DNA of 64,000 bases from a virus (IMGVR_UViG_2690316068_000002); one strand, 5' to 3'. Positions 11,947-24,019 are shown, counted from the stretch's first letter. Made by a program: numbers and translations. The notes: generated by a model not told the origin, from the letters alone.

Positions 11947-13521
11947 TCACTCGTTCTCTTGAGTAGATGAGTCCCCATTCCCTCGGGGTTGATCTTGCCC
12001 GCTTTCTTGGGCTGCACCACGATCATAAGTAAGTACTGACTTATTTTCAAGGGTATTTAGATCATTTTTTGGAGGAAAATTCAAGAGATCTTTATCAAAT
12101 TCCTTTTTCATCGCCTCAGTAATGTTCGGGAAAATCTTCTCAATAAGCATTTCCATCTGGTGACGACGTACAGAGTCCGGTGCCTGAAGTAATGACAGTT
12201 TCTCGGCAACAGAAAATTCATCAGTAAGGCCACGAATATCGAAACTTTCTGGATACGCAATTAAAGAGTGGTCTTCGTCCAGATCTACCCCCATCCATTT
12301 CGCAACCAGTAGCATGATTTGGCGTTCAGCCCTTTCCAGACGCTCTGCTTTTGTGACAAGCAAGCTATTTACACGCTGGAAGTCATACATTTTTGCGGCA
12401 CCAGATGAATTATCGATTCCCTGTGCGTTGTCCTGCTTCGTTCGCTCACCAGCTACACCAACTGAATGGTAGATTTCGTTAATCACCGTCTTAATCGTAG
12501 TGATGATCATCTGAGCTTGTTTCGGGTCTGGTGACAGATAAAACGGCTGGTTTCCACCTTCAGAATCGTAGGTGAAGACTCGCTTTGTGCCCATTTCAAG
12601 CACTTTAGTGTGGTTTTCATCACCAGGTAAAAGCGACTGTACCGGTATAGCCAACTGGCTAAATGTCTGATCCTGAATAATGGCATCAAGGTTTGACAGA
12701 TAGTTTGCAACCGCACGATCAAGATAAGCGATATCATCGATCAACGATGGGCTGAAATACGGTGATTCACTTTCTCCAATACAATCAACAGGAAACACAG
12801 GAACTACGCCGAGATTATGCGCGCCGCTGTCCTCTAAAATAACTTTTGCCTGACGACGACCTGCTCCACCAGCCCCCTTCTTCACTTCCTCACGGAACAG
12901 ATACCACTCGTTTTGTGTCCACAGACGATAACGTTGGTATTCCTGACCTGTAGAAGTAAAAGGATCTGCGTCATCGCGAGCGACTTCCACAATTAACGCC
13001 CATAACATATTCCCGTCGTCGTCCCATGCCACATCCAGCATTTGCTGAGGTGAAATCCAGTAGGCGTAGGCGCGAGCATCTTTCTTTTTCTCGTCAGCTA
13101 CTGACTCAACATCACCACTCATCGTGCTATCGACAACAACCCATATGCGACCGTAAATAGACGACTGCAAATCAATAGCGGCCATAAATGAGTCAATAGA
13201 GGCATTCTGGCGAGTCGCACGTTTCCAGAAATTGCGGATCTGCTCTGGTGCCTCTTCGATATTTCTATGAATGTCTTCTTTAAAGAGATATTTGTTGATG
13301 AGGTTTACCACCTCACGAGTGTGGTTGAAGCGATAAGCACGCTCAACTCGCTCCTTAAACTCCTGATCTCCCTCTTTAAAGTAACGAAAGATATTGTCTG
13401 TAAACCAACCACGCCCGCCAGCGTAAGTGCTGGCGAGGAAGTCCCAATGTTCTTTTTTCTTTTCGTATTCCGGGTGGCGTCGCGCCACCAGATCCTTAAT
13501 TTGTTTGTCGTTCAATTCCAT
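11947..13521 (-). CDS. Portal protein
   Basis: 524 aa, immediately downstream of large terminase and upstream of scaffold; acidic C-terminus. Confidence 0.7.
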   Translation of the reverse strand: MELNDKQIKDLVARRHPEYEKKKEHWDFLASTYAGGRGWFTDNIFRYFKEGDQEFKERVERAYRFNHTREVVNLINKYLFKEDIHRNIEEAPEQIRNFWKRATRQNASIDSFMAAIDLQSSIYGRIWVVVDSTMSGDVESVADEKKKDARAYAYWISPQQMLDVAWDDDGNMLWALIVEVARDDADPFTSTGQEYQRYRLWTQNEWYLFREEVKKGAGGAGRRQAKVILEDSGAHNLGVVPVFPVDCIGESESPYFSPSLIDDIAYLDRAVANYLSNLDAIIQDQTFSQLAIPVQSLLPGDENHTKVLEMGTKRVFTYDSEGGNQPFYLSPDPKQAQMIITTIKTVINEIYHSVGVAGERTKQDNAQGIDNSSGAAKMYDFQRVNSLLVTKAERLERAERQIMLLVAKWMGVDLDEDHSLIAYPESFDIRGLTDEFSVAEKLSLLQAPDSVRRHQMEMLIEKIFPNITEAMKKEFDKDLLNFPPKNDLNTLENKSVLTYDRGAAQESGQDQPRGNGDSSTQENE

Positions 13522-13547: not shown

Positions 13548-14804
13548 CTATCTAGAACCACCAAGAATAACACGGTTTTTGACTGGATACCTACGATGTA
13601 CTGGATAGCCCAATGCGTCTGCACTATGCTCAATGCCACCTGTCTTATCCATATCTCGTGTTCCAGGCTTGTAGATGACTTTTTCCAATGAATCAATCAA
13701 ATGCTTGCACTTCGGATCGATATACAGCCGGATATCTCCAGATGCGGTCATCAGCATTCGGTTAACAGCATTAACACGATCCGCAATTGGCGGGTGCTTT
13801 TTCGAATAATCGACACGTAAGAATCCCTTCTCTTTGAATATGTCGACGTCAGACTCCCCGCGAGCATGTTGGCGATAAGCACCTGCCGGATCTGGAAATA
13901 CCGTTATCTGTGATTTCCAGCGCCAGAAGCGTCTCTCAAGCTCATCACAAACCTCTGCCGTGTTAGAGGAAAAGAGCACCAATTCATCAATTGCCCATAG
14001 CTCACCATTTGGCTGAGGTTGCAAAATTACTGAAGACATCGGGTCAATGTTGAAGTCCTGCCCTACCCATATAGGCAACCGAGGGTTGAACTGAAGCGGT
14101 TTTACATGCACGTTACGATCGAACGGGTAGTAAACGCGCCCGGACATGTTCTCAAAGCTCGCCAGGTACTCCTGAGCGAACGATTTCGGGTCCATATCGT
14201 TCTTAGCAGCTTCAATTTCCGCCGTAGGCACAAACGGAGAATCAGCAGTTACAAACTGCCAGCTCTTCCACTGTCCCTTTCTTTGCAGCTCTACGTTCTG
14301 GCCTATAGTCCACAGTTTGTGAAATTCCGAGAAGCCTTTTGGCGTACCAATGATCAGTGCACCGCCGCGTGTCGATGAAAGAGTAGGTCGTAACACCTTG
14401 TACCAAGTGTCAGCCTTCATATCCTGAAATTCATCAAGCACTACAAAATGCAACGCTACGCCGCGCAGAGTGTCAGGCTTATCAGCACCTTTGAGGGCGA
14501 TCTCCGAACCGTTCTTCAACACGATTGTCATCGTGGTGTCGTTCTTTTTCCTAACCCACTTACGAGGCAGAACTTCCTGTAGATCGTCCCACAAAATCTG
14601 GCGAGCCATCTGGTAAGTAGGAGCGACATACCAGACCCTTTGCTTTTTTTCCTTTGCCGCCGCACGAATAATAGTGGAGATCGACAACCGGGATTTTCCC
14701 CAGCGTCGACCAGCACAAACAACTTTAAATCGATGCGGAGACTGGAAGACTTTCATCTGTCCAGAATGCAGTTGCACAAGACTGAGCGAGGACGGGATTG
14801 CCAT
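13548..14804 (-). CDS. Terminase large subunit
   Basis: 418 aa; Walker A (CAGRRWGKS), Walker B (HFVVLDEFQD), C-terminal nuclease-type acidic motifs (WVGQDFNIDP). Confidence 0.85.
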   Translation of the reverse strand: MAIPSSLSLVQLHSGQMKVFQSPHRFKVVCAGRRWGKSRLSISTIIRAAAKEKKQRVWYVAPTYQMARQILWDDLQEVLPRKWVRKKNDTTMTIVLKNGSEIALKGADKPDTLRGVALHFVVLDEFQDMKADTWYKVLRPTLSSTRGGALIIGTPKGFSEFHKLWTIGQNVELQRKGQWKSWQFVTADSPFVPTAEIEAAKNDMDPKSFAQEYLASFENMSGRVYYPFDRNVHVKPLQFNPRLPIWVGQDFNIDPMSSVILQPQPNGELWAIDELVLFSSNTAEVCDELERRFWRWKSQITVFPDPAGAYRQHARGESDVDIFKEKGFLRVDYSKKHPPIADRVNAVNRMLMTASGDIRLYIDPKCKHLIDSLEKVIYKPGTRDMDKTGGIEHSADALGYPVHRRYPVKNRVILGGSR

Positions 14805-15436
14805 TATTCGTCCTCCCCTTCACTTCCATCATCTGTCGCGTCAAATTCGCTTAGAGCTTCTTCTTCCAACGTCTCAAGCAATTCGTCATCGATGATTTCA
14901 GGCTCGTCGTCTTCCTGACGTAATTTCGCCACCTGGGAAGGCGTAAGCTCACCAAATACCAGGTTCGGAATTTCTTCCTCGTCATTTTCCGCATGATCCA
15001 TGCCCAATGCTTTGGACGAAACTTCAAAGCATTTTGCAAGGGTATTACTGGCTCTCTGTAAGCTCTTGAGAGAATCCTCAATCGCCCCTAAAGGCTTACC
15101 CTCACGTTTGGCCGTAGTGACTTCGACCATCACCATCTGCCCCAACGCATACGCCCAGCCGTCATAACGTGTACGACGTTCTTCTATCTTTTCCGCACGG
15201 GCTTTAGCGCGAAGCTCTGCGTCAGATTTAAGAGACTCACGAACCATCTTCCCAACAGAGTCCGCGCCTTTCTCTAATCCTCGCTTTTTGAAATGTCTGG
15301 AGAGTGTTTCACGACGAATGCCGTACTCTTCCTCCAGCTTTGAGAGTGTATATTCGCCTGACGTCCATTTGGCTTCAGCTTCGGCCCACTCCGCTGGTGT
15401 CAGGCGAGTTTTTACCTCGTCTTTTTCGACCGTCAT
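14804..15436 (-). CDS. Terminase small subunit (putative)
   Basis: 210 aa immediately upstream of and abutting terL; N-terminal HTH-like region, acidic C-terminal tail. Confidence 0.5.
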   Translation of the reverse strand: MTVEKDEVKTRLTPAEWAEAEAKWTSGEYTLSKLEEEYGIRRETLSRHFKKRGLEKGADSVGKMVRESLKSDAELRAKARAEKIEERRTRYDGWAYALGQMVMVEVTTAKREGKPLGAIEDSLKSLQRASNTLAKCFEVSSKALGMDHAENDEEEIPNLVFGELTPSQVAKLRQEDDEPEIIDDELLETLEEEALSEFDATDDGSEGEDE

Positions 15437-15550
15437 AGATCCCTCTAAAACACACAGAGCGCGTCCATGCGCTCTAAAACAACTTGTTTACTGCATCTGC
15501 TAACCAACTTGTTTTCTGGGTTGTTTAATTAGGTCTGGCATGTCTTACGA

Positions 15551-15609
15551 AGCCTGCTTCCGTATATATTTAATAAGTTACTTATTATTTATATATACAG
15601 AAGCAGGTC
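15551..15609. repeat. 59-bp AT-rich palindromic element, copy 1
   Basis: agcctgcttccgtatatat...atatatacagaagcaggtct; 19-bp stem around an AT-rich centre; a second near-identical copy lies at 47941-47999. Confidence 0.8.
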
Positions 15610-15631
15610 TTTAAATAAGCTCCCAGACCGA

Positions 15632-15898
15632 TTACATCACCAGTAACTTCGCTTTGGCTCGACCTAAAGTGGTTAACCCAAGAGTTCGGCGGTGATAGCG
15701 ATTGTCACTGCGTTGGCGCGTATGCCCTTTCTCCACCAGCCCCTTTTTTATCAGAGCGCGAATTGAGAACTGGATACTTTGCTTGGTTGTCTTGTACGGC
15801 AAAACTTCAAGCAATTCGTCCAGGTCAAGTAGATGACCTCGCTCATAACCGAGATTGAGCGTTTTGATGATGTCCTTTTGTTTATCGGTTAACGTCAT
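15632..15898 (-). CDS. Small winged-helix-type DNA-binding protein (putative)
   Basis: 88 aa, basic C-terminus; weak HTH resemblance. Confidence 0.35.
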   Translation of the reverse strand: MTLTDKQKDIIKTLNLGYERGHLLDLDELLEVLPYKTTKQSIQFSIRALIKKGLVEKGHTRQRSDNRYHRRTLGLTTLGRAKAKLLVM

Positions 15899-15907
15899 GG
15901 CAAATCC

Positions 15908-16798
15908 TTATGCCGGTAAAGCAATTTCTAACGGTTTATCCAAAGGTTGTTTGTCGAATGCCAGCAGTGGCAGCGTGTCAGGCAGTCGACGGCCAAAGTC
16001 AGGGTTTCGGTACACACCATACAACGGAGACGTAAAGCTCAGGTTGTGAATGTCCTTGAGCAGCTTCACAATGCTGGCCTCGTCCACCAGACTGTCGGCA
16101 ATGTCCTGAATCGTCGTGCCACGATTCCGCCCAGCTTTTGCCAGGGAACTGTTCTTGTGGTAGTCCGCTACCAGATCACGCAGTGCACGGCGACGACGAG
16201 ACTCGCTCATTGCGAACAACTCTTTGACGATCGCCTCGTTATCACCCGGGTCGGAACGGAAATGGCGCTGGAATACACGCAGTGCACTTTCATAGCTCTT
16301 CGGTCGCTCAGGGCGGATGAACTTAAACCCTGCTTTCATGGCGAAGGGATTGTATTTGCTCATCGAGGACTGGATCTCAATGATTGGCCGGTCATGCATC
16401 CTGCTAACCAGGTTAATCATTCGATAAGAGACGCCTACGCCACGATACTGAGTATCCACAACTGAGCGACTGATCACCGCAAAGTTGTTATTCACGTACC
16501 GACCCCAGTACTGGTTAGCCACGGTGGTATTAGTGGTTGGTTTCAACTTAGGAAACATGCGGTGGCGAGGTGCCAGCAGTAGTTTCGGGTAAGCCATAAC
16601 CACGACGCCCACCAGACGGTCATCAAGTTCGCAGCGATAGTAAGTTGGCGCGAAAGGTTTGCCGTCTGTTTTGTAGTGAAGCGACTTAAGAGCGTGCCAG
16701 TCCTCTACAGTTCCCTTTGTGACAGTCATTCGCTCCAGAAAGTCCAGATGACGCGGAAACTCTTCAGGGCGGTAGCGTTTAATGATGATGTCCGTCAT
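15908..16798 (-). CDS. GNAT-fold acetyltransferase-like protein (tentative)
   Basis: 296 aa; candidate acetyl-CoA motif R-x-x-G-x-G (YRGVGVSYRMINLV) in a beta-strand-rich context; stop overlaps start of downstream ABC ATPase gene. Confidence 0.4.
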   Translation of the reverse strand: MTDIIIKRYRPEEFPRHLDFLERMTVTKGTVEDWHALKSLHYKTDGKPFAPTYYRCELDDRLVGVVVMAYPKLLLAPRHRMFPKLKPTTNTTVANQYWGRYVNNNFAVISRSVVDTQYRGVGVSYRMINLVSRMHDRPIIEIQSSMSKYNPFAMKAGFKFIRPERPKSYESALRVFQRHFRSDPGDNEAIVKELFAMSESRRRRALRDLVADYHKNSSLAKAGRNRGTTIQDIADSLVDEASIVKLLKDIHNLSFTSPLYGVYRNPDFGRRLPDTLPLLAFDKQPLDKPLEIALPA

Positions 16799-17460
16799 AA
16801 ATGAACCTCATCATGACTACCATTGTGATATTCCACCTTCACGCGTTCTTTGTAGTGCTTGGTGATCTGCATATCCGGGCGCAGCGCGTTCTTCAGGTCT
16901 TCGTGAGTCGTCGCCACCATTACCGTCGCACCAACCTTTCGAGCGGCACGCTGGAGGTTAGATGCCACAACCTGAGCGGTTACACGGTCTAGAACAGCAC
17001 CGAACTCGTCAGCAGCCCACACTTTAGCGCCTGACTCAATCAGTTTGGCAATCTTGAGACGATATTTCTGACCGTCTGACATTTCAGAAGGCTTGCGAAC
17101 AAACAGATATGCATCGTTCAGACCAGCCATAGATAACAACCCAAGCGCATCGCTGGTCGTTTTGCCCAACTGATCGATGACGTTAACCTCATTATCGAAG
17201 GTAAAATCATCGATGGAGGCTACAGACAGCCCTTCATCCTTCATCTGTCGTTGCAACTCGCGCAGCACAACGGATTTGCCGGAACCGGATTGGCCGGTGA
17301 TGTACACCACATCGCCCTGCTTCACTTCCAGCTCCAGATTGTCGTAAAGCGTCCACTCTTTTTCGTCCAGGCCAAGCCCGAACGACTCAGCGATTTCCAA
17401 CGTGCGCGTGGTTTTATTTACGCGTGTCTGAAACGATACGTTGATGATGTATTTGCTCAT
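16795..17460 (-). CDS. Stand-alone ABC-type ATPase
   Basis: 221 aa; Walker A GQSGSGKS, ABC signature-like SDGQKYRL, Walker B VWAADEF, H-loop TTHED. Confidence 0.7.
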   Translation of the reverse strand: MSKYIINVSFQTRVNKTTRTLEIAESFGLGLDEKEWTLYDNLELEVKQGDVVYITGQSGSGKSVVLRELQRQMKDEGLSVASIDDFTFDNEVNVIDQLGKTTSDALGLLSMAGLNDAYLFVRKPSEMSDGQKYRLKIAKLIESGAKVWAADEFGAVLDRVTAQVVASNLQRAARKVGATVMVATTHEDLKNALRPDMQITKHYKERVKVEYHNGSHDEVHL

Positions 17461-18158
17461 GCAGCCATCTCCCCGGAAGAGATCTTCTCCGCATATGCCA
17501 CAAATGCGTCTACCCCGCTTTCTCCCGTCATTTCTTCCATGTGGGCAAGCAAATCACCAACAACAATGGCAGAGCCAGCAGGAAGCGTTTTAAAGCCCAA
17601 TACGTCGACAACACGTACTTCTTCCGCTGCAACTTCACGACTGATCTCGGTGTGTTCATCCTTCTGTCGTTTAGTTTCTTCGCCAAGATCGATAACTAGC
17701 GAGTCGGTGTCCATTTCTTCTGTCATGCTGCCAACGAGAACATTCAACTCACGCTCTTCAAAGCCGAAAACCTCGATATCGTCCAGAACAAGCGACTCAA
17801 GCTCTTTCTGTAGCTTAATTGCATCGTAATCAATGCTGGCAAGTCGGTTATCTTCAAGGCGCTTCGCACGAACCTCGTCATCACTGAGATCATCGCGAAC
17901 AATAACCGGTACGCGCTCAAGTCCAGCAAAAATTGCAGCCTCACGGCGGCCGTGGCCAGTAATAATTACGTCGTTCTTATCGACCGTAATTGGCTGGTCA
18001 AATCCGCGCTTTTTAATGGCTGCGGCTAGATCTCGGATCTGCTGTTCATCATGCTTTTTGGCATTCATCTCATAGGGAATAAGATCTGCCGGGTCGCGAT
18101 ATACGATTTCAAACTTTTTGGTCATTACATACGCTCCTTGTAGTAGTCGACCAGCCAC
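17457..18158 (-). CDS. ParB N-terminal domain (ParB/Srx-like) protein
   Basis: 233 aa; ParB-type motif ITGHGRREAA; acidic C-terminal half. Confidence 0.6.
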   Translation of the reverse strand: MAGRLLQGAYVMTKKFEIVYRDPADLIPYEMNAKKHDEQQIRDLAAAIKKRGFDQPITVDKNDVIITGHGRREAAIFAGLERVPVIVRDDLSDDEVRAKRLEDNRLASIDYDAIKLQKELESLVLDDIEVFGFEERELNVLVGSMTEEMDTDSLVIDLGEETKRQKDEHTEISREVAAEEVRVVDVLGFKTLPAGSAIVVGDLLAHMEEMTGESGVDAFVAYAEKISSGEMAA

Positions 18159-18823
18159 ACCAGAGCCTCACCAGCGTTCTCCATTTCATTACCGGTGTTA
18201 ATAGCCTGCTCTTTGATGATGTTTTTTATGGTTTCTGCAACACGATCTGACGCATCGAAAGTTACTTTGAAGCGCATGGTCTGATGTTCCGCCCCCACAC
18301 GTTCGGTTTTCTCTCGTTTGTCGGTATCGACAGGCTCATCACTACCACGAGACAACGCCTCCAGTGCTTCAAGGTCGATTGCCGCCTCTTTTGCTAAAAC
18401 CATCGAGATTTCGTCGTCATACGGGGCGATTTCAGACAGTTGATAGTCAAGTTCTGACTGAATTTCTTCAATGAAGCGTTGCAATGCGATTTGGTCGTCT
18501 TCACCGTATCGCTCGTTGTCCACCAGTGACATCTGTTTAGCTACGACATCGCTAATTTTGCCCACAGAAAGCACCGGAACCGTTGAAATTCCTTGCTCAA
18601 TAGCAGCACGCCAGCGATGTTCGCCGCCGAGGATTTCAAAAAATCCATCTTCAAGTTCACGAGCCAAAATTGGCTTAAAAAAGCCCAATTTTTCGATAGA
18701 ACCTTTCAGTTTTTCAAAATTCTGCGCACCAACCGAATTGGTGTTCCAGGTATTCGGGCGAAGGTTGGCAACATCAACCTGCAAAATCGTGATTTTTACA
18801 TCCATTTTATTGCTACAATCCAC
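18125..18823 (-). CDS. ParB-like nuclease domain protein
   Basis: 232 aa; ParB-box-like ILGGEHRWRAA. Confidence 0.55.
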   Translation of the reverse strand: MDCSNKMDVKITILQVDVANLRPNTWNTNSVGAQNFEKLKGSIEKLGFFKPILARELEDGFFEILGGEHRWRAAIEQGISTVPVLSVGKISDVVAKQMSLVDNERYGEDDQIALQRFIEEIQSELDYQLSEIAPYDDEISMVLAKEAAIDLEALEALSRGSDEPVDTDKREKTERVGAEHQTMRFKVTFDASDRVAETIKNIIKEQAINTGNEMENAGEALVWLVDYYKERM

Positions 18824-18887
18824 TAAGTAATCACTTACTTATTATAATAGCCAAATAACATACAAAAGGCACTAAGGAAAGAGGTTT

Positions 18888-20447
18888 ATGACTGTTCGGA
18901 TTGTATCTAACGCAGTAAATGCGCTTATTTCTGGCGCAGATGACAAGGTAAAGCAACTGGTGCAGCAAATGTTGAGCTACGAAGTCGAGACTGGCGACTG
19001 GAAGGGCACAAGCACGATGTTCAACTGGAGTAAAAACTCGTTCCCTGCTGGCTTTGCCAAGCCTGTAGCGGCGAACTTGAACAAGGCGGGCATCAAATGT
19101 GTTCATATCCGCAAAGACAAAGCCCCGGCGCTTGGTAAACCAAATCCGGCGGTTAACCCATTCCCATACAATCCTGATTATGCGTATCAGGATCAGACTG
19201 TGGAAACACTGGTTCGAGAGGGAATGATGATTGCGCAGATCGCTACTGGTGGCGGGAAATCTAATGTTGCCTGCAAAGCAGCTGCACGTATCGGTCGAAT
19301 GACATTATTTTTAACAACCCGCTCTGTTCTGATGTTTCAAATGGCCGAAAACTTCCAGAGATCCATCGACTACCGCGCCGAAAATGGCGAACCGTGGTTA
19401 AAGGGCCAAAAGGTTGGAGTCATTGGCTCGGGTGAGTTCCAGGTATCACGACATATCAACGTCGCTACAGTTCAAACTCTGGCAAGTTTCCTTGAAGAAC
19501 CACCACGCGATGCAACACCAGATAAAAAGAGCTACCACCTCAAACGTCGGGAGCTAGTGAAACGCTTCCTTTCAAGTGTGTCTCTGCTTATTCTGGAAGA
19601 AGCGCATGAGTCTTCAGGCTCTAATTTCTATGACATTGCCAGATTATGTGTGAACGCAGACTATCGTCTGGCGCTTACGGCCACGCCGTTCATGAAGGAT
19701 TCTACAGAAGCCAACATGCGTCTGATGGCTGTGGCCGGTCGAATTGAAATTAAAGTCACAGAAAAGTACCTGATTGATCGAGGCATTCTGGCAAAACCGT
19801 ACTTCCTTTATCATAAAGTTGCTTACAAGCCAGACGAGGTCAGAATCAAGGCGGAACTTGCCAACAAACACCTTAATTTTAGAGTAGGTATGAGCACAGC
19901 CTACCAAAAGGCTTATCAGTTGGGGATCGTGTATAATTTGGGACGTAACGAGGCCATTGTGCGCGAAGCATTGCTCTATAAGCAACATTCTCTCAATTGC
20001 ATGACTCTGGTTCGTCTTAAACGCCACGGGCAAATCCTGATGGAGATGATGAAAGAGTCCGGCCTTAGAGTTGACTTCATCTATGGGGAATCGAACCAGG
20101 CGACAAGGCAAGCAAAGCTGAACAGTTTAGCGTCTGGAGAAATAGATGTTTTAATAGGCTCGACTATTCTGGATGTCGGTGTTGATGTGCCAAGCGTGGG
20201 CGCGGTCATTCTTGCTGGTGGTGGGAAAGCAGAAGTTGAAATGAGGCAGCGTGTCGGTCGAGGCTTACGAGCCAAGAAGAATCAGGCAAACGTGTGTTTT
20301 ATCACTGATTTCATTGACATTAGCAACAAATACCTGTTGTCTCACTCTTATGAGCGAAAACACATCATCGACACCACACCTGGCTTTGCAGAAGGTGTAT
20401 TGCCTATTGATGGCGCATTCGATTTTGGAGTTCTGAAACGAGATTAG
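18888..20447 (+). CDS. SF2 (DEAD/DEAH-like) helicase
   Basis: 519 aa; Walker A TGGGKS, motif II LEEAH, motif III TATP, motif VI QRVGRGLR. Confidence 0.8.
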   Translation: MTVRIVSNAVNALISGADDKVKQLVQQMLSYEVETGDWKGTSTMFNWSKNSFPAGFAKPVAANLNKAGIKCVHIRKDKAPALGKPNPAVNPFPYNPDYAYQDQTVETLVREGMMIAQIATGGGKSNVACKAAARIGRMTLFLTTRSVLMFQMAENFQRSIDYRAENGEPWLKGQKVGVIGSGEFQVSRHINVATVQTLASFLEEPPRDATPDKKSYHLKRRELVKRFLSSVSLLILEEAHESSGSNFYDIARLCVNADYRLALTATPFMKDSTEANMRLMAVAGRIEIKVTEKYLIDRGILAKPYFLYHKVAYKPDEVRIKAELANKHLNFRVGMSTAYQKAYQLGIVYNLGRNEAIVREALLYKQHSLNCMTLVRLKRHGQILMEMMKESGLRVDFIYGESNQATRQAKLNSLASGEIDVLIGSTILDVGVDVPSVGAVILAGGGKAEVEMRQRVGRGLRAKKNQANVCFITDFIDISNKYLLSHSYERKHIIDTTPGFAEGVLPIDGAFDFGVLKRD

Positions 20448-20449
20448 TT

Positions 20450-20728
20450 ATGAGCGAAAAGAAAACAACTTATTGCCAGGTGGCATTGTCCGATAAGGCC
20501 AATGACAAACTTGGAAAGTTTCAAATGAAACTAAAAGAAAAAAACATCAAAATGTCTAAGGCTGAAGTTATCAATACCATTCTGGAAGCGATGACAATGG
20601 CTGAATTTGACAAAGTTTCATCTGCCGTTGGAGTCTCTGCTAAGGCTCGTGAGAAAATCATGCGCATCTATGAGAACTCTAATATGACAAAGGAAGATTT
20701 AGAGCAAATTCTAAGCAAACTGCCATAA
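20450..20728 (+). CDS. Hypothetical protein
   Basis: 92 aa ORF starting 3 nt after helicase stop. Confidence 0.45.
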   Translation: MSEKKTTYCQVALSDKANDKLGKFQMKLKEKNIKMSKAEVINTILEAMTMAEFDKVSSAVGVSAKAREKIMRIYENSNMTKEDLEQILSKLP

Positions 20729-20982
20729 CATTTCACATTGCCTCCATCCGCCAATTCCAAGATGTGCTTACTTGTAAAAGGAGCACATCAATTGATGTGG
20801 CCTAAAGAATGAATTTAATCAAGACAAACATTGAATGATTAATAGACTACGATAGTGTCCAACAGGGCATTCTCATGTGACATTTGTCACATTTTTAACC
20901 GCATAAGTCTCCGGCTGAAAAAAGTTCTTGATTGGCTGAATGATATTTGTAGGCTTATCAATGTTTAGAGCCGGAGGTGTGA

Positions 20983-21525
20983 ATGGGTGTACTTGACATT
21001 GATAGTAATTACTTAAGTGCAAGGCGAATAAAGGAATGTGTTCATATCTATTGTAAATCAAAGCAGTCTTGTTTAGAAAAGCAGGCGTACCTAACATCGT
21101 CTCAAAAAGGAGAGCACAAACTCATCAAATATAAACTAAAGGCTTCGCGCAAAGATCGTTATGAGCACTATATATACGTAAAGGATATTGAAGGTACCAA
21201 GACAAATTGCGGTATTATCTTTTATCCCTATGATATATCAAGACTGTTCTCCATTATGAAATCCTGTGTCGGCGTAGCTCCAGGTAAATTAGAGTTGCAT
21301 TCAAACTTATACGATTACCCAAATGCTCAAAAACAGATAAACGATAGTACTTCGCCCTATGGATTTTCGTTTCTCTTCAAGAATCATCTCGCATTGAAAG
21401 ATTTCATCGAAAAATACAATGAAGGAATAATATCAGGCGAATTAAATTTCAACAAAATCTGCGGAGATATAAAGAGGGACGACCTTTTAATAGATATTTA
21501 CAATAGAACCCAAGTTAACGTGTAA
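20983..21525 (+). CDS. Hypothetical protein (AT-rich cargo)
   Basis: 180 aa ORF in strongly AT-rich DNA, first of a four-gene plus-strand cassette. Confidence 0.5.
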   Translation: MGVLDIDSNYLSARRIKECVHIYCKSKQSCLEKQAYLTSSQKGEHKLIKYKLKASRKDRYEHYIYVKDIEGTKTNCGIIFYPYDISRLFSIMKSCVGVAPGKLELHSNLYDYPNAQKQINDSTSPYGFSFLFKNHLALKDFIEKYNEGIISGELNFNKICGDIKRDDLLIDIYNRTQVNV

Positions 21526-21552
21526 CCATCCATTAATCATAGCCAGACAAAT

Positions 21553-21972
21553 ATGAAAGTAACAAACCTATTTATTCTAACACTAGCCACATCACTAATT
21601 GGGTGTTCATCTTCATCTATATCTGTTTCAAAGGCAAAGTATGCACCTCAAAGCAGAATATTTAAATATCAAACACCACATGAGTCTAGTCTAACAATAG
21701 TTAGAGACAAAGGCCTGGTTGGTTCTGGATGTAACGCTTCCATATTCATCAATGGAGAAACGGCAGCAAAATTGGAACCTGGTGAAAAAGCAACTTTCTA
21801 TCTTAATGAAGGAGATTGGATCGTTGGGGCATCAATTGAAAGTTCAGGTCTTTGCGCATTTAACCCCTCTAGGATGGAGCGAGAAATAAAACTAAAGCAA
21901 GGCGACGCGAAAACATATCGGGTTTTCACTACCTGGGATGGTACAATGGATATATTGCCAACCACTTTATAA
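21553..21972 (+). CDS. Putative lipoprotein
   Basis: 139 aa; signal peptide with lipobox (LIGC) at residues 15-18. Confidence 0.6.
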   Translation: MKVTNLFILTLATSLIGCSSSSISVSKAKYAPQSRIFKYQTPHESSLTIVRDKGLVGSGCNASIFINGETAAKLEPGEKATFYLNEGDWIVGASIESSGLCAFNPSRMEREIKLKQGDAKTYRVFTTWDGTMDILPTTL

Positions 21973-21979
21973 TGATATG

Positions 21980-22501
21980 ACGACGAAAGACATCACCTAC
22001 GGTGTGCCAGCAGAAGTCTGGCCGCGAGATTACACTAACGTTGAAAAACTACTGATGTTCTGGCGCAGAGAACAAATTCCTGTAAGGGTCACTCTCGAAG
22101 ATGGCCAGGCGTTTTGCATGTACGTTTATGGCCTCATGCCATCTCGTAACAAAGTTGACCTTTGCCCAGCCCCTTTTGACAAAGAAAATCGTATAAGGCT
22201 CCCACTTGAACGCATTAGTACAATTGAATCAGGTGTGGTTGACAGTATCGCTCACGATTTCAAAGGTCGACTAACAGTTCACCCTGATTATGTCGATAAT
22301 CGGCCATCACGCCGCGATTTTTTTGCAATTTGCAACCAAGCCTACAAAGCAAACAAATCTATAAGGGTGTACATGGCGGATGGCCGTGAAATTGAGGGGG
22401 TGTCAGCAGGCGCAGATGCTTGTCAGGTTACACTACGTGTCGAGAACGGTAGAAAAATAGTTGTTTTGTTCGATTGGGTTGAACGAATTTTGCCTTTTTG
22501 A
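21980..22501 (+). CDS. Hypothetical protein
   Basis: ORF-track 21938-22501 overlaps the lipoprotein gene; an internal Met (MTTKDITYG) just after its stop is the likelier start. Confidence 0.45.
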   Translation, partial: TTKDITYGVPAEVWPRDYTNVEKLLMFWRREQIPVRVTLEDGQAFCMYVYGLMPSRNKVDLCPAPFDKENRIRLPLERISTIESGVVDSIAHDFKGRLTVHPDYVDNRPSRRDFFAICNQAYKANKSIRVYMADGREIEGVSAGADACQVTLRVENGRKIVVLFDWVERILPF

Positions 22502-22504
22502 GTT

Positions 22505-22813
22505 ATGAAATCGATATTGTTACCACCATTATTTTTACTTTGCTCAGTTGCGGCAAATGCAATGGACTATAAGCCTGTCATTCAGTCGCTGATGAATGAC
22601 GTGTGCTCAACGTCTCAGAATGTATCAGTTTGCATGTATCAATTTTCGGCAGCCGTAAAAGCAGGAAAAGCGATAGGTGAGAATGTGGAACTGTGTAAGA
22701 AAGTGGCAAATGAAGAACGGGCAATGTTGGATTGCGAATCTAGCGAGTCATCGGCACAGTTCGTTGATGCGCTATTTGACACCAATCGTAAGGCTGTAGA
22801 GTCTGTTCAATAA
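22505..22813 (+). CDS. Putative secreted/periplasmic protein
   Basis: 102 aa; N-terminal signal peptide (MKSILLPPLFLLCSVAANA) and several Cys. Confidence 0.55.
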   Translation: MKSILLPPLFLLCSVAANAMDYKPVIQSLMNDVCSTSQNVSVCMYQFSAAVKAGKAIGENVELCKKVANEERAMLDCESSESSAQFVDALFDTNRKAVESVQ

Positions 22814-23096
22814 ATCTATAAGGTTAATAACCGGCTAAGTCCGGTTATTATTTTTCACATCACTTCTTTATATCTACAAATCAAATAACCTAAATATATA
22901 TAAGGTCTAAAGCCGCAATCGATTATTTATTTAGGGAACACCTTCGACGATCTCGCTTTTATTTCTAGGACTTTCATCCCTGCAAAAAATTTAAAAAAAA
23001 CACTTGCAATCTTTTTTCGCGTATCGATAATTGAACTCGTCGAAAGCGAAGACGCTAACGACAATAAATTTTAAATTTACATAAGGAAAAATTATC

Positions 23097-23747
23097 ATGG
23101 CTAACATTATCATTTCTAAAAAGTCCATCATTGAAGCTGCATCTATTGTATCCGACGAGCTGCGCGAAAAAGCAGATCTGGCAACTCAAACATATAACGA
23201 ACATTATAAAAATGGTACGCACACTAAAGCAGACAAAGCAAATATGCAAGCTGCGACCACTAAACTTGCTTACTTCATCAACAACGTTGTAAACGCTGTA
23301 GAAGACGAAAAATTATGCTCTGTTTTCTACTATGCGATTAAAGCAAGCAAACAAGCGCCAGAAGTATTTTTCCGTGATGCAATGACTAATAGTTATTCTC
23401 TGGAAAAACTGGTTTATCTGGTTAAATCCATTAAAGCTGGTAAATGCGTTTATTCCGTCGCTGATATGTCTGGATCTCGTGTATTCGCTTTAATCGATAT
23501 GATTAACGACGAGATCGACACGTTCACTAATGGCGCTGTTTTCGATTTAATGAATGAAGCTAAAAAAGCGTGCGAAATTAAATTGGACGCTGGCTATACT
23601 CAAGCCAACCAGTTGATCAATCTTTGCGAACGTCTTGGACTTGTTGAAAAAGTCAAAGGAGCTGGGAGCGCGAAAGCTGGTACTCAGCAATATCGCTTCG
23701 TTAAAAATGATTTCTACAATTATTTAGCTGATGCTTTTAAAGCGTAA
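23097..23747 (+). CDS. Hypothetical protein
   Basis: 216 aa ORF after an AT-rich promoter-like region. Confidence 0.5.
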   Translation: MANIIISKKSIIEAASIVSDELREKADLATQTYNEHYKNGTHTKADKANMQAATTKLAYFINNVVNAVEDEKLCSVFYYAIKASKQAPEVFFRDAMTNSYSLEKLVYLVKSIKAGKCVYSVADMSGSRVFALIDMINDEIDTFTNGAVFDLMNEAKKACEIKLDAGYTQANQLINLCERLGLVEKVKGAGSAKAGTQQYRFVKNDFYNYLADAFKA

Positions 23748-23795
23748 TTAATGGAATCAAGCGCCCACAATGGGCGCTTTAAAGGAGCTTTAAAA

Positions 23796-23999
23796 ATGGT
23801 CAGCTATGACAAGATCCGCGCGGAATATCGCGCAAAGTATCGCGCTTATAAACTGGAATTAATCGATGTTTTGATCGCGCAACGCGACCAATTAAATTTT
23901 ACGTTTTCTGATTTGCTTAACAGTAAACGAGATTGTAAGCGTAAACGTGAATATTTACGTTTAAGCGCATTAATCGGAAAACTGCAAAATTCTATTTAA
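23796..23999 (+). CDS. Hypothetical small basic protein
   Basis: ORF-track start at 23751 would place a terminator-type hairpin (agcgcccacaatgggcgct) inside the coding region; internal Met (MVSYDKIR) is more plausible. Confidence 0.35.
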   Translation: MVSYDKIRAEYRAKYRAYKLELIDVLIAQRDQLNFTFSDLLNSKRDCKRKREYLRLSALIGKLQNSI

Positions 24000-24019
24000 T
24001 TTTTTTAAGGAGCTTAATC

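Follow-up and report, generated by a model that had tools for sequence, protein, structure and literature searches.

The 64,000-nucleotide stretch of viral DNA considered here (IMGVR_UViG_2690316068_000002; below, the window) carries, at positions 15,632 to 17,460, the genes for an ABC ATPase of 221 amino acids (aa) and a 296-aa protein with a GNAT fold, which we show by alignment with fused relatives to be two subunits of one predicted enzyme. Both belong to a functional unit of five genes, ParB1-ParB2-ABC-GNAT-wHTH (winged helix-turn-helix), which is larger than the three-gene module described in a first-pass annotation of this DNA. Judged by its sequence, the window is an SSU5-like phage-plasmid of Escherichia coli: over positions 15400-18900, identity reaches 98.5-99.5% with phages Cyrano, CMS-2020a, and PhiR41_1 and 85% with Salmonella phage SSU5. 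We propose that the five genes, expressed late, would covalently modify the phage’s own DNA before packaging, with acyl or aminoacyl groups being placed on bases in an ATP-dependent and ParB-assisted reaction. We put the chances of this proposal at about even.

One enzyme in two genes

A profile search over 1.84 billion representative proteins returned 859 relatives of the 296-aa protein; of the remote ones, most are 440-500 aa long. In these, the homologous region begins near residue 200-235, and the N-terminal part matches the Pfam family ABC_tran. Residues 3-216 of the window ABC protein align to positions 22-237 of an archaeal fusion (hhalign probability 100, E 4.6e-68, 47% identity over 214 columns), and residues 3-267 of the GNAT protein align to fusion positions 226-485 (probability 99.9, E 2.3e-34). 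It is this collinear alignment of both genes with the halves of fused ABC-GNAT proteins that identifies their products as parts of one enzyme. Most relatives are single polypeptides, with more than 2,000 fused homologs at E<=1e-10, and many tailed viruses of bacteria and archaea carry the fused form. A first scan of IMG/VR with the 296-aa protein gave near-identical relatives only; more than 590 IMG/VR relatives were recovered in one search and more than 560 in another. The ABC-GNAT family spans viruses of both prokaryotic domains, and its members are annotated as “ABC transporter” or “hypothetical”. In the window, the two domains lie on separate polypeptides whose genes overlap by 4 nucleotides (nt), and this split-gene form is common to the whole SSU5/Nickievirus clade and is also found in Enterococcus phage 9184. 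The first-pass annotation had suggested a functional tie between the ATPase and the GNAT-like protein. That tie is borne out by their co-occurrence in all 28 related loci compared and by the fused homologs, and the pair is clearly present outside the source element.

The family is not new in kind. JGI names homologs of the 296-aa protein “ABC-type ATPase with predicted acetyltransferase domain” (COG2401), and an ABC ATPase-GNAT system was predicted computationally to acylate a DNA base, with phage pT24 as an example (Iyer, Zhang, Burroughs, and Aravind 2013, as cited in Iyer et al. 2021, PMC7824862). Protein gp038 of Tenacibaculum phage pT24 matches the archaeal fusion profile (probability 99.5, E 4.8e-23) over the ABC domain and into the first part of the GNAT domain; the gp037 fragment matches just motif A (probability 16.5). 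As a split-gene form of this computationally described family, the module is not a categorically new system. In public records, phrog_886, which corresponds to the GNAT half, is mislabeled “ABC transporter ATP-binding subunit”. One ABC-GNAT homolog contains an intein with a LAGLIDADG domain inside its ABC domain, and P0154 (Thaumarchaeota) has a C-terminal TFIIB repeat.

The ABC protein matches Pfam ABC_tran (PF00005, E 5.8e-13) and has a Walker A motif (GQSGSGKS, 56-63), a signature (MSDGQ, 127-131), a Walker B motif (VWAADE, 147-152), a D-loop (AVLD, 155-158), and an H-loop (H186). The features of the ABC-GNAT subfamily, namely Walker A, the signature (LSDGQKYR in the family), Walker B (DEF), and the H-loop, are all found in it. 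Its fold is that of a compact, transporter-type nucleotide-binding domain, not of the OLD, SMC, or Rad50 type, and fold matches include PhnK/L and methyl-coenzyme M reductase (MCR) component A2. No permease or transmembrane partner gene is found near it in the window or in related loci; its operon neighbors are ParB-N, GNAT, wHTH, and terminase genes. With no permease and a GNAT partner, the label of ABC transporter or “auxiliary metabolic gene” given by PHROG and GenBank was rejected. The description of a stand-alone ATPase with all nucleotide-binding motifs and no transporter domain was accurate.

The basic character of the GNAT half is strong and consistent, with an isoelectric point of 9.8 for the 296-aa protein. 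A GNAT domain at about residues 20-165 is followed by a conserved helical C-terminal domain ending in a YGVYRNPD motif. The alpha/beta fold with its pyrophosphate-binding loop places the protein in the GNAT superfamily, which upholds the earlier assignment as GNAT-like, and the family motifs HY(K/R), R-x-x-G-x-G/A (the loop), and C-terminal Y-x-x-W/Y-x-NP are present. Residues H41, Y42, K43, R119, G122, Y260, N265, and P266 are invariant. As the cofactor motif is retained and many residues are invariant, the catalytic domain is not vestigial. A sequence search of the Protein Data Bank with the 296-aa profile gave no meaningful match, and neither NCBIfam nor PADLOC 2.0 gave a match for the GNAT half.

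The five-gene module and its neighborhood

The three open reading frames (ORFs) of 88, 296, and 221 aa that had been placed between 15,632 and 17,460 are confirmed, all on the minus strand, and are extended by two upstream ParB genes. The features of the region are as follows.

18125..18823, minus strand: ParB1, ParB-N (ParB/Srx CTPase-fold) protein; Pfam ParB_N, phrog_723
17457..18158, minus strand: ParB2, ParB-N protein; Pfam ParB_N, phrog_930, phrog_498
16795..17460, minus strand: ABC ATPase, 221 aa; motifs as above, PF00005
15908..16798, minus strand: GNAT protein, 296 aa; C-terminal half of the ABC-GNAT enzyme
15632..15898, minus strand: wHTH protein, 88 aa; phrog_900, PadR/MarR profile matches
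15553..15607, no strand: near-perfect palindrome of 55 nt between the wHTH gene and terS
14804-15436, minus strand: TerS-like protein, phrog_867; neighbor, outside the module
13548-14804, minus strand: large terminase TerL; neighbor, outside the module
11947-13521, minus strand: portal, after TerL in gene order
18888-20447, plus strand: UvsW-like helicase, divergent from ParB1

The order on the minus strand is ParB1, ParB2, ABC, the 296-aa GNAT, the 88-aa wHTH, a 195-bp gap, TerS, TerL, and portal, so that the module does lie upstream of the terminase genes, as first noted, with TerS and TerL following after the gap. The ParB2/ABC and ABC/GNAT junctions are each a stop-start overlap of the form ATGA; TerS/TerL overlap as TAATG, as do the ParB1 stop and the ParB2 ATG at 18125. 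The translational coupling reported for the ABC and 296-aa genes thus holds in the window through the ATGA overlap but is not conserved: an 84-aa ORF is inserted there in relatives that are 99% identical, and distant relatives have one to three small genes between ABC and GNAT (Phage_gp49_66, RyR-domain, and others without known function). This junction is an insertion hot spot, as seen in loci L085 (7741-7995), L004 (6961-7999), L003 (7705-7995), and L111 (5646-5981).

ParB1 has 232 aa from a GTG start; the Cyrano annotation uses the ATG at 18805, for a protein of 226 aa. ParB1 contains a canonical-like box II (GGEHRWRAA) and a box III (DNERY), matches ParB_N at 3.3e-13 and phrog_723 at 2e-79, and occupies the same position in 27 of 27 related loci with upstream sequence (28 loci in all). 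The true start of ParB2 is probably the ATG at 18125, giving 222 aa. ParB2 matches ParB_N at 1.5e-8 and phrog_930 at 1.2e-112. It also matches phrog_498 (DNA methyltransferase) at 5.3e-32, over profile positions 29-179 only, and PADLOC MTase_II at 2.7e-17; ParB-methyltransferase fusions contain a module homologous to it at their N terminus. The window ParB proteins have no methyltransferase domain, and ParB_N is the sole Pfam domain in each, with no helix-turn-helix (HTH) domain detected. A role of the pair in plasmid partition was rejected: no HTH is present, no ParA gene adjoins the module, the TIGR00180 score (43 bits) is under the cut-off of 58, and the ParBs also occur in phages without recorded lysogeny, such as nickie. 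Orthologs of ParB2, which likewise lack a methyltransferase domain, are mislabeled “DNA methyltransferase” or “DNA modification methylase”; annotation errors in records were noted at L116 1823-2473, L111 4322-5014, and phrog_886.

The 88-aa protein is basic and matches phrog_900 at 1.9e-45. Its earlier description as a small HTH protein stands in the form of a winged helix, based on weak to moderate profile matches to PadR and MarR regulator structures (E 2e-4 and 2.4e-3). A homologous small ORF directly follows the GNAT gene in 23 of 29 loci, and in 13 of these the two genes overlap at the GNAT stop codon; the overlap of the wHTH start with this stop is 4 nt in distant relatives. The 195 bp between the wHTH gene and terS (15437-15631) form the sole sizeable gap in the operon. 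In addition to the palindrome, which is AT-rich, this gap contains two partly palindromic direct repeats of 17 nt each (15477-15493 and 15502-15518) and a terminator-like GC hairpin (15476-15455) just ahead of the terS start. The linear Cyrano and SSU5 records both stop about 60 bp past the wHTH gene, within this gap. The gap and its palindrome may mark a transcription boundary, serve as an operator or other regulatory site, or be a packaging site.

We compared 28 loci with the 296-aa family from Gamma- and Alphaproteobacteria, in integrated prophages and in contigs of about 100-118 kb. As far as the contigs reach, the order helicase / ParB1 ParB2 ABC GNAT (wHTH) TerS TerL portal is invariant in all 28, and the same block is found in Pseudomonas phage nickie, Rhizobium RHEph10-like phages, and Stenotrophomonas and Xanthomonas phages. 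Identity of the ABC protein to distant phages of this set (52-64%) is similar to that of TerL (54-65%). Among fused forms, a ParB-N gene immediately precedes ABC-GNAT in Gordonia BiggityBass, Rhodococcus Jace, Arthrobacter EastWest, Streptococcus 315.4, Pasteurella Pmp13, and Leptospira LE4. In a sample of 80 diverse IMG/VR loci from bacterial phages, the preceding ORF encodes ParB_N in 46 of 73, and TerL is within two ORFs downstream in about 43 of 74, from the Pfam families Terminase_6N (24), Terminase_3 (13), GpA (4), and TerL_ATPase (2). On archaeal contigs (Bathyarchaeia, Nitrososphaerota), the fusion is inside head-tail provirus modules (6/6 look-ups), and TerL is directly upstream of it in 59 of 79 archaeal-type IMG/VR loci. 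In Bathyarchaeia-type proviruses (L113, L114, L126, L127, L128, L115; L129-L208), where no ParB-N gene was seen, the fusion comes directly after TerL at the element edge. TerL and the fusion overlap by 4 nt in three archaeal cases, and one archaeal variant has the fusion after the major capsid gene instead of TerL.

Other lineages place the enzyme beside different genes. A formyltransferase is near ABC-GNAT in three of them (BiggityBass gp3, phiE255 gp30, and a Porphyromonas phage). BiggityBass gp3 is labeled “tRNA-methyltransferase” in its record and has a formyltransferase domain at E 7e-10. In Rhodococcus phage Jace, gp87-gp88 (L122 5101-6212), an aspartate decarboxylase (PanD) and a truncated family-III CoA-transferase, follow ParB and ABC-GNAT, and this adjacency suggests beta-alanyl-CoA as the acyl donor in that lineage; among the 80 IMG/VR loci, 5 also have a CoA-transferase. 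An ASCH-domain protein adjoins ABC-GNAT in Streptococcus phage 315.4, and a DNA polymerase does so in Enterococcus phage 9184. Natural fusions of a family-B DNA polymerase (PolB) to ABC-GNAT are present on 12 contigs of up to 73 kb; these fusions and the intein-bearing homolog were noted among the metagenome proteins P0206 (1260 aa), P0172, and P0159 (847 aa). The phiE255 enzyme comes after tail-fiber genes, as does that of the Porphyromonas phage, there at the end of the linear record.

Expression in a lysogen was taken from the LF82 transcriptome (PMC9928086, S1 Table), which covers Cyrano as a prophage and uses a cut-off of 49 for genes expressed in lysogeny. The module block, CYRAN_119-123, has normalized values of 5.0, 9.5, 9.2, 8.0, and 7.8, against a prophage median (background) of 9.8 and values of 7.1 for terS and 8.4 for terL. 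The lysogen thus leaves the block as silent as terS and terL, and with its operon linkage to late genes it behaves like a gene set of the late lytic phase. Its neighbor CYRAN_117 reads 114, one of the highest values for any Cyrano gene in the lysogen. The ortholog of CYRAN_117 is a 92-aa protein (20450-20728, plus strand, phrog_1466), and the helicase between reads 46. From 20000 to 24000, the GC content is 0.39-0.40 compared with about 0.47 elsewhere and the strand skew flips, which suggests an acquired accessory island that includes a 180-aa ORF (20983-21525).

Candidate substrates and roles of the module

If the module acts on phage DNA, the GNAT domain would transfer an acyl or aminoacyl group to the exocyclic amine of a base in the double-stranded molecule. 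The donor could be an acyl-CoA, because the R-x-x-G-x-G/A-like motif is intact, or an aminoacyl-tRNA, as for Mom of phage Mu. ATP binding and hydrolysis by the ABC subunit would drive DNA engagement or base exposure, the ParB-N pair, devoid of a DNA-binding HTH, would activate the enzyme or direct it to DNA, as is known from ParB-dependent phage thymine dioxygenases, and the wHTH protein may supply DNA binding or regulation. The pay-off would be an injected genome that resists host nucleases, so that protection from restriction would be expected. The ParB-N partners, the likeness of ParB2 to the ParB module of methyltransferases, the PolB fusions, and the polymerase neighbor support the link to DNA, and the formyltransferase, PanD plus CoA-transferase, and ASCH neighbors support small-group chemistry. 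The proposal also draws on the published prediction for the family, on the late timing of the block, and on Mom and the ParB-activated dioxygenases as precedents.

Several points weigh against this proposal. The window encodes no donor-synthesis or tailoring enzyme. The GNAT protein has no sequence similarity to Mu Mom (hhalign probability 0.5), and its fold matches Mom no better than ordinary GNATs that act on proteins or small molecules. The persistent adjacency to TerL and the TerL-like conservation of the ABC protein would equally fit a role in packaging. No paper was found that tests DNA modification in SSU5-like, Nickievirus, or related phages. The literature searched yielded no experimental study of the ABC-GNAT system and nothing useful on N4-acetyl-deoxycytidine in phage, RHEph10 restriction, or COG2401.

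Packaging provides the main rival explanation, because terminase adjacency persists across unrelated families and in both prokaryotic domains. The ParBs and ABC-GNAT would then act with the terminase, in recognizing or preparing the start site or in remodeling concatemers, and acyl transfer would target a packaging protein or be vestigial. Collinearity with TerS, TerL, and portal throughout the 28 clade loci speaks for such an accessory, as do the large palindrome ahead of terS, the TerL genes of four unrelated Pfam families shortly downstream in bacterial phages, and, in archaeal proviruses, the TerL gene that immediately precedes the enzyme and often overlaps it by 4 nt. However, the enzyme is found in other lineages next to a DNA polymerase, fused to PolB, or after tail-fiber genes, its formyltransferase, PanD plus CoA-transferase, and ASCH neighbors point to small-group chemistry, and its invariant cofactor motif and residues argue against a vestigial catalytic domain. 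Moreover, late DNA modifiers such as ParB-methyltransferase fusions commonly sit in the same position before the terminase genes. The first-pass annotation held that the pair is no standard packaging or morphogenesis component, and indeed neither protein was recognized as one; we consider a packaging accessory rather unlikely. It is also conceivable, if unlikely, that the module writes an acyl or aminoacyl mark in a manner mechanistically coupled to the terminase, the mark being placed on, or required for, the DNA that enters the capsid. Such coupling would explain why the enzyme stays with unrelated TerL families from E. coli phage-plasmids to Bathyarchaeial proviruses, and it would make the module an ancient shared accessory of head-tail virus packaging that goes beyond anti-restriction. 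This tie to terminase in viruses of both domains is unexplained and merits attention.

DNA might not be the substrate at all. An acyltransferase acting on a protein or small molecule could serve host takeover or virion maturation, in the manner of Rac of phiKMV-like phages, which acetylates RNA polymerase. PMC7824862 reports phage GNATs that modify host proteins, and transporter-like nucleotide-binding domains power soluble complexes such as PhnK/L and MCR component A2. Nevertheless, the ParB-N partners, the kinship of ParB2 with methyltransferases, the PolB fusions, and the ASCH neighbor point to nucleic acid, the GNAT half is consistently basic, and late-type silence with linkage to a structural operon is ill-suited to early host takeover, so that we regard this alternative as quite unlikely. 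We find it very improbable that a small ABC ATPase and an effector act here in prophage defense or abortive infection, the analogy originally drawn for this locus. ABC ATPases are common in defense systems (PMC12839542), and the ABC protein gives weak PADLOC matches to MADS mad3 (1.8e-13) and mad8 (1.2e-8) and to PtuA P-loops. However, a defense role is made unlikely by the silence of the block in the lysogen, where it does not rise above background, and by the lack of any PADLOC match for the GNAT half. The ABC fold is also not of the OLD, SMC, or Rad50 type, and the module is an invariant core block within a late operon, not a variable island, and is shared with phages, such as nickie, that have no lysogeny indicated in their records. 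Where the first-pass annotation had offered “defence, anti-defence or host-modifying” functions, anti-defense comes closest, through modification of the phage’s own DNA and the protection from restriction expected from it; defense does not hold up.

Implications and comparison with known systems

If the modification of phage DNA is confirmed, SSU5-like phage-plasmids package DNA with an unrecognized acyl-type base modification. Of 5,426 complete E. coli genomes, 242 carry such elements, and Klebsiella, Salmonella, and Yersinia harbor them too. The modification would bear on how they cross restriction barriers, some SSU5-like elements carrying resistance genes, and could affect the sequencing and cloning of their DNA. 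The few post-replicative DNA hypermodifiers would also be joined by a GNAT that depends on ATP and ParB. The window offers a tractable E. coli model, as Cyrano is inducible from LF82 and the host in the PhiR41_1 record is E. coli K-12 MG1655.

The closest known relative is the COG2401-type ABC-GNAT system, to which both window proteins are homologous over their full length and whose viral setting is alike. In contrast to it, the window enzyme is split into two genes, with insertions between them in relatives, and is accompanied by two ParB-N genes and a wHTH gene. The C-terminal domain of about 130 aa in the window GNAT protein is shared with the 480-aa archaeal fusions, whereas the 360-410-aa fusions of bacterial phages have much less sequence after the GNAT domain. 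In TmcA and NAT10, which are RNA cytidine N4-acetyltransferases, an ATPase is coupled with a GNAT whose target is a nucleobase. The ATPase of TmcA is helicase-like, not ABC, and the substrate is tRNA or rRNA; the likeness is one of description, and we do not claim homology. That the module might make an N4-acyl-cytosine, by analogy with TmcA and given the ASCH neighbor, is pure speculation and is not claimed here.

Mom of phage Mu is a GNAT-fold protein that makes N6-carbamoylmethyl-adenine in DNA using Gly-tRNA, a co-substrate that could not be predicted from its structure (PMC13219725). Membership of the Mom family was rejected at the sequence level, the fold alone being shared. Unlike the window module, Mom needs no ATPase or ParB partner, and it has an HTH-like insertion and a Com regulator, neither of which is seen here.

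In phages, fusions of the ParB-CTPase fold to methyltransferase domains are common, as are fusions to ASCH in archaea; a single tested bacterial protein joins the fold to an acetyltransferase domain (PMC12704722). In ParB-N-methyltransferase fusions (phrog_498, MTase_II), the N-terminal 150-180 residues match ParB2, but in the window the catalytic role would be taken by ABC-GNAT and not by a methyltransferase. Phage thymine dioxygenases need ParB-like proteins that lack a DNA-binding domain as their activators on double-stranded DNA (PMC13229309). As in these 5mYOX/ParB pairs, a ParB-fold protein without a recognizable DNA-binding domain adjoins what would be a post-replicative DNA-modifying enzyme; the catalytic partner there is an Fe/2-oxoglutarate dioxygenase, whereas the window has ABC-GNAT and two ParB paralogs.

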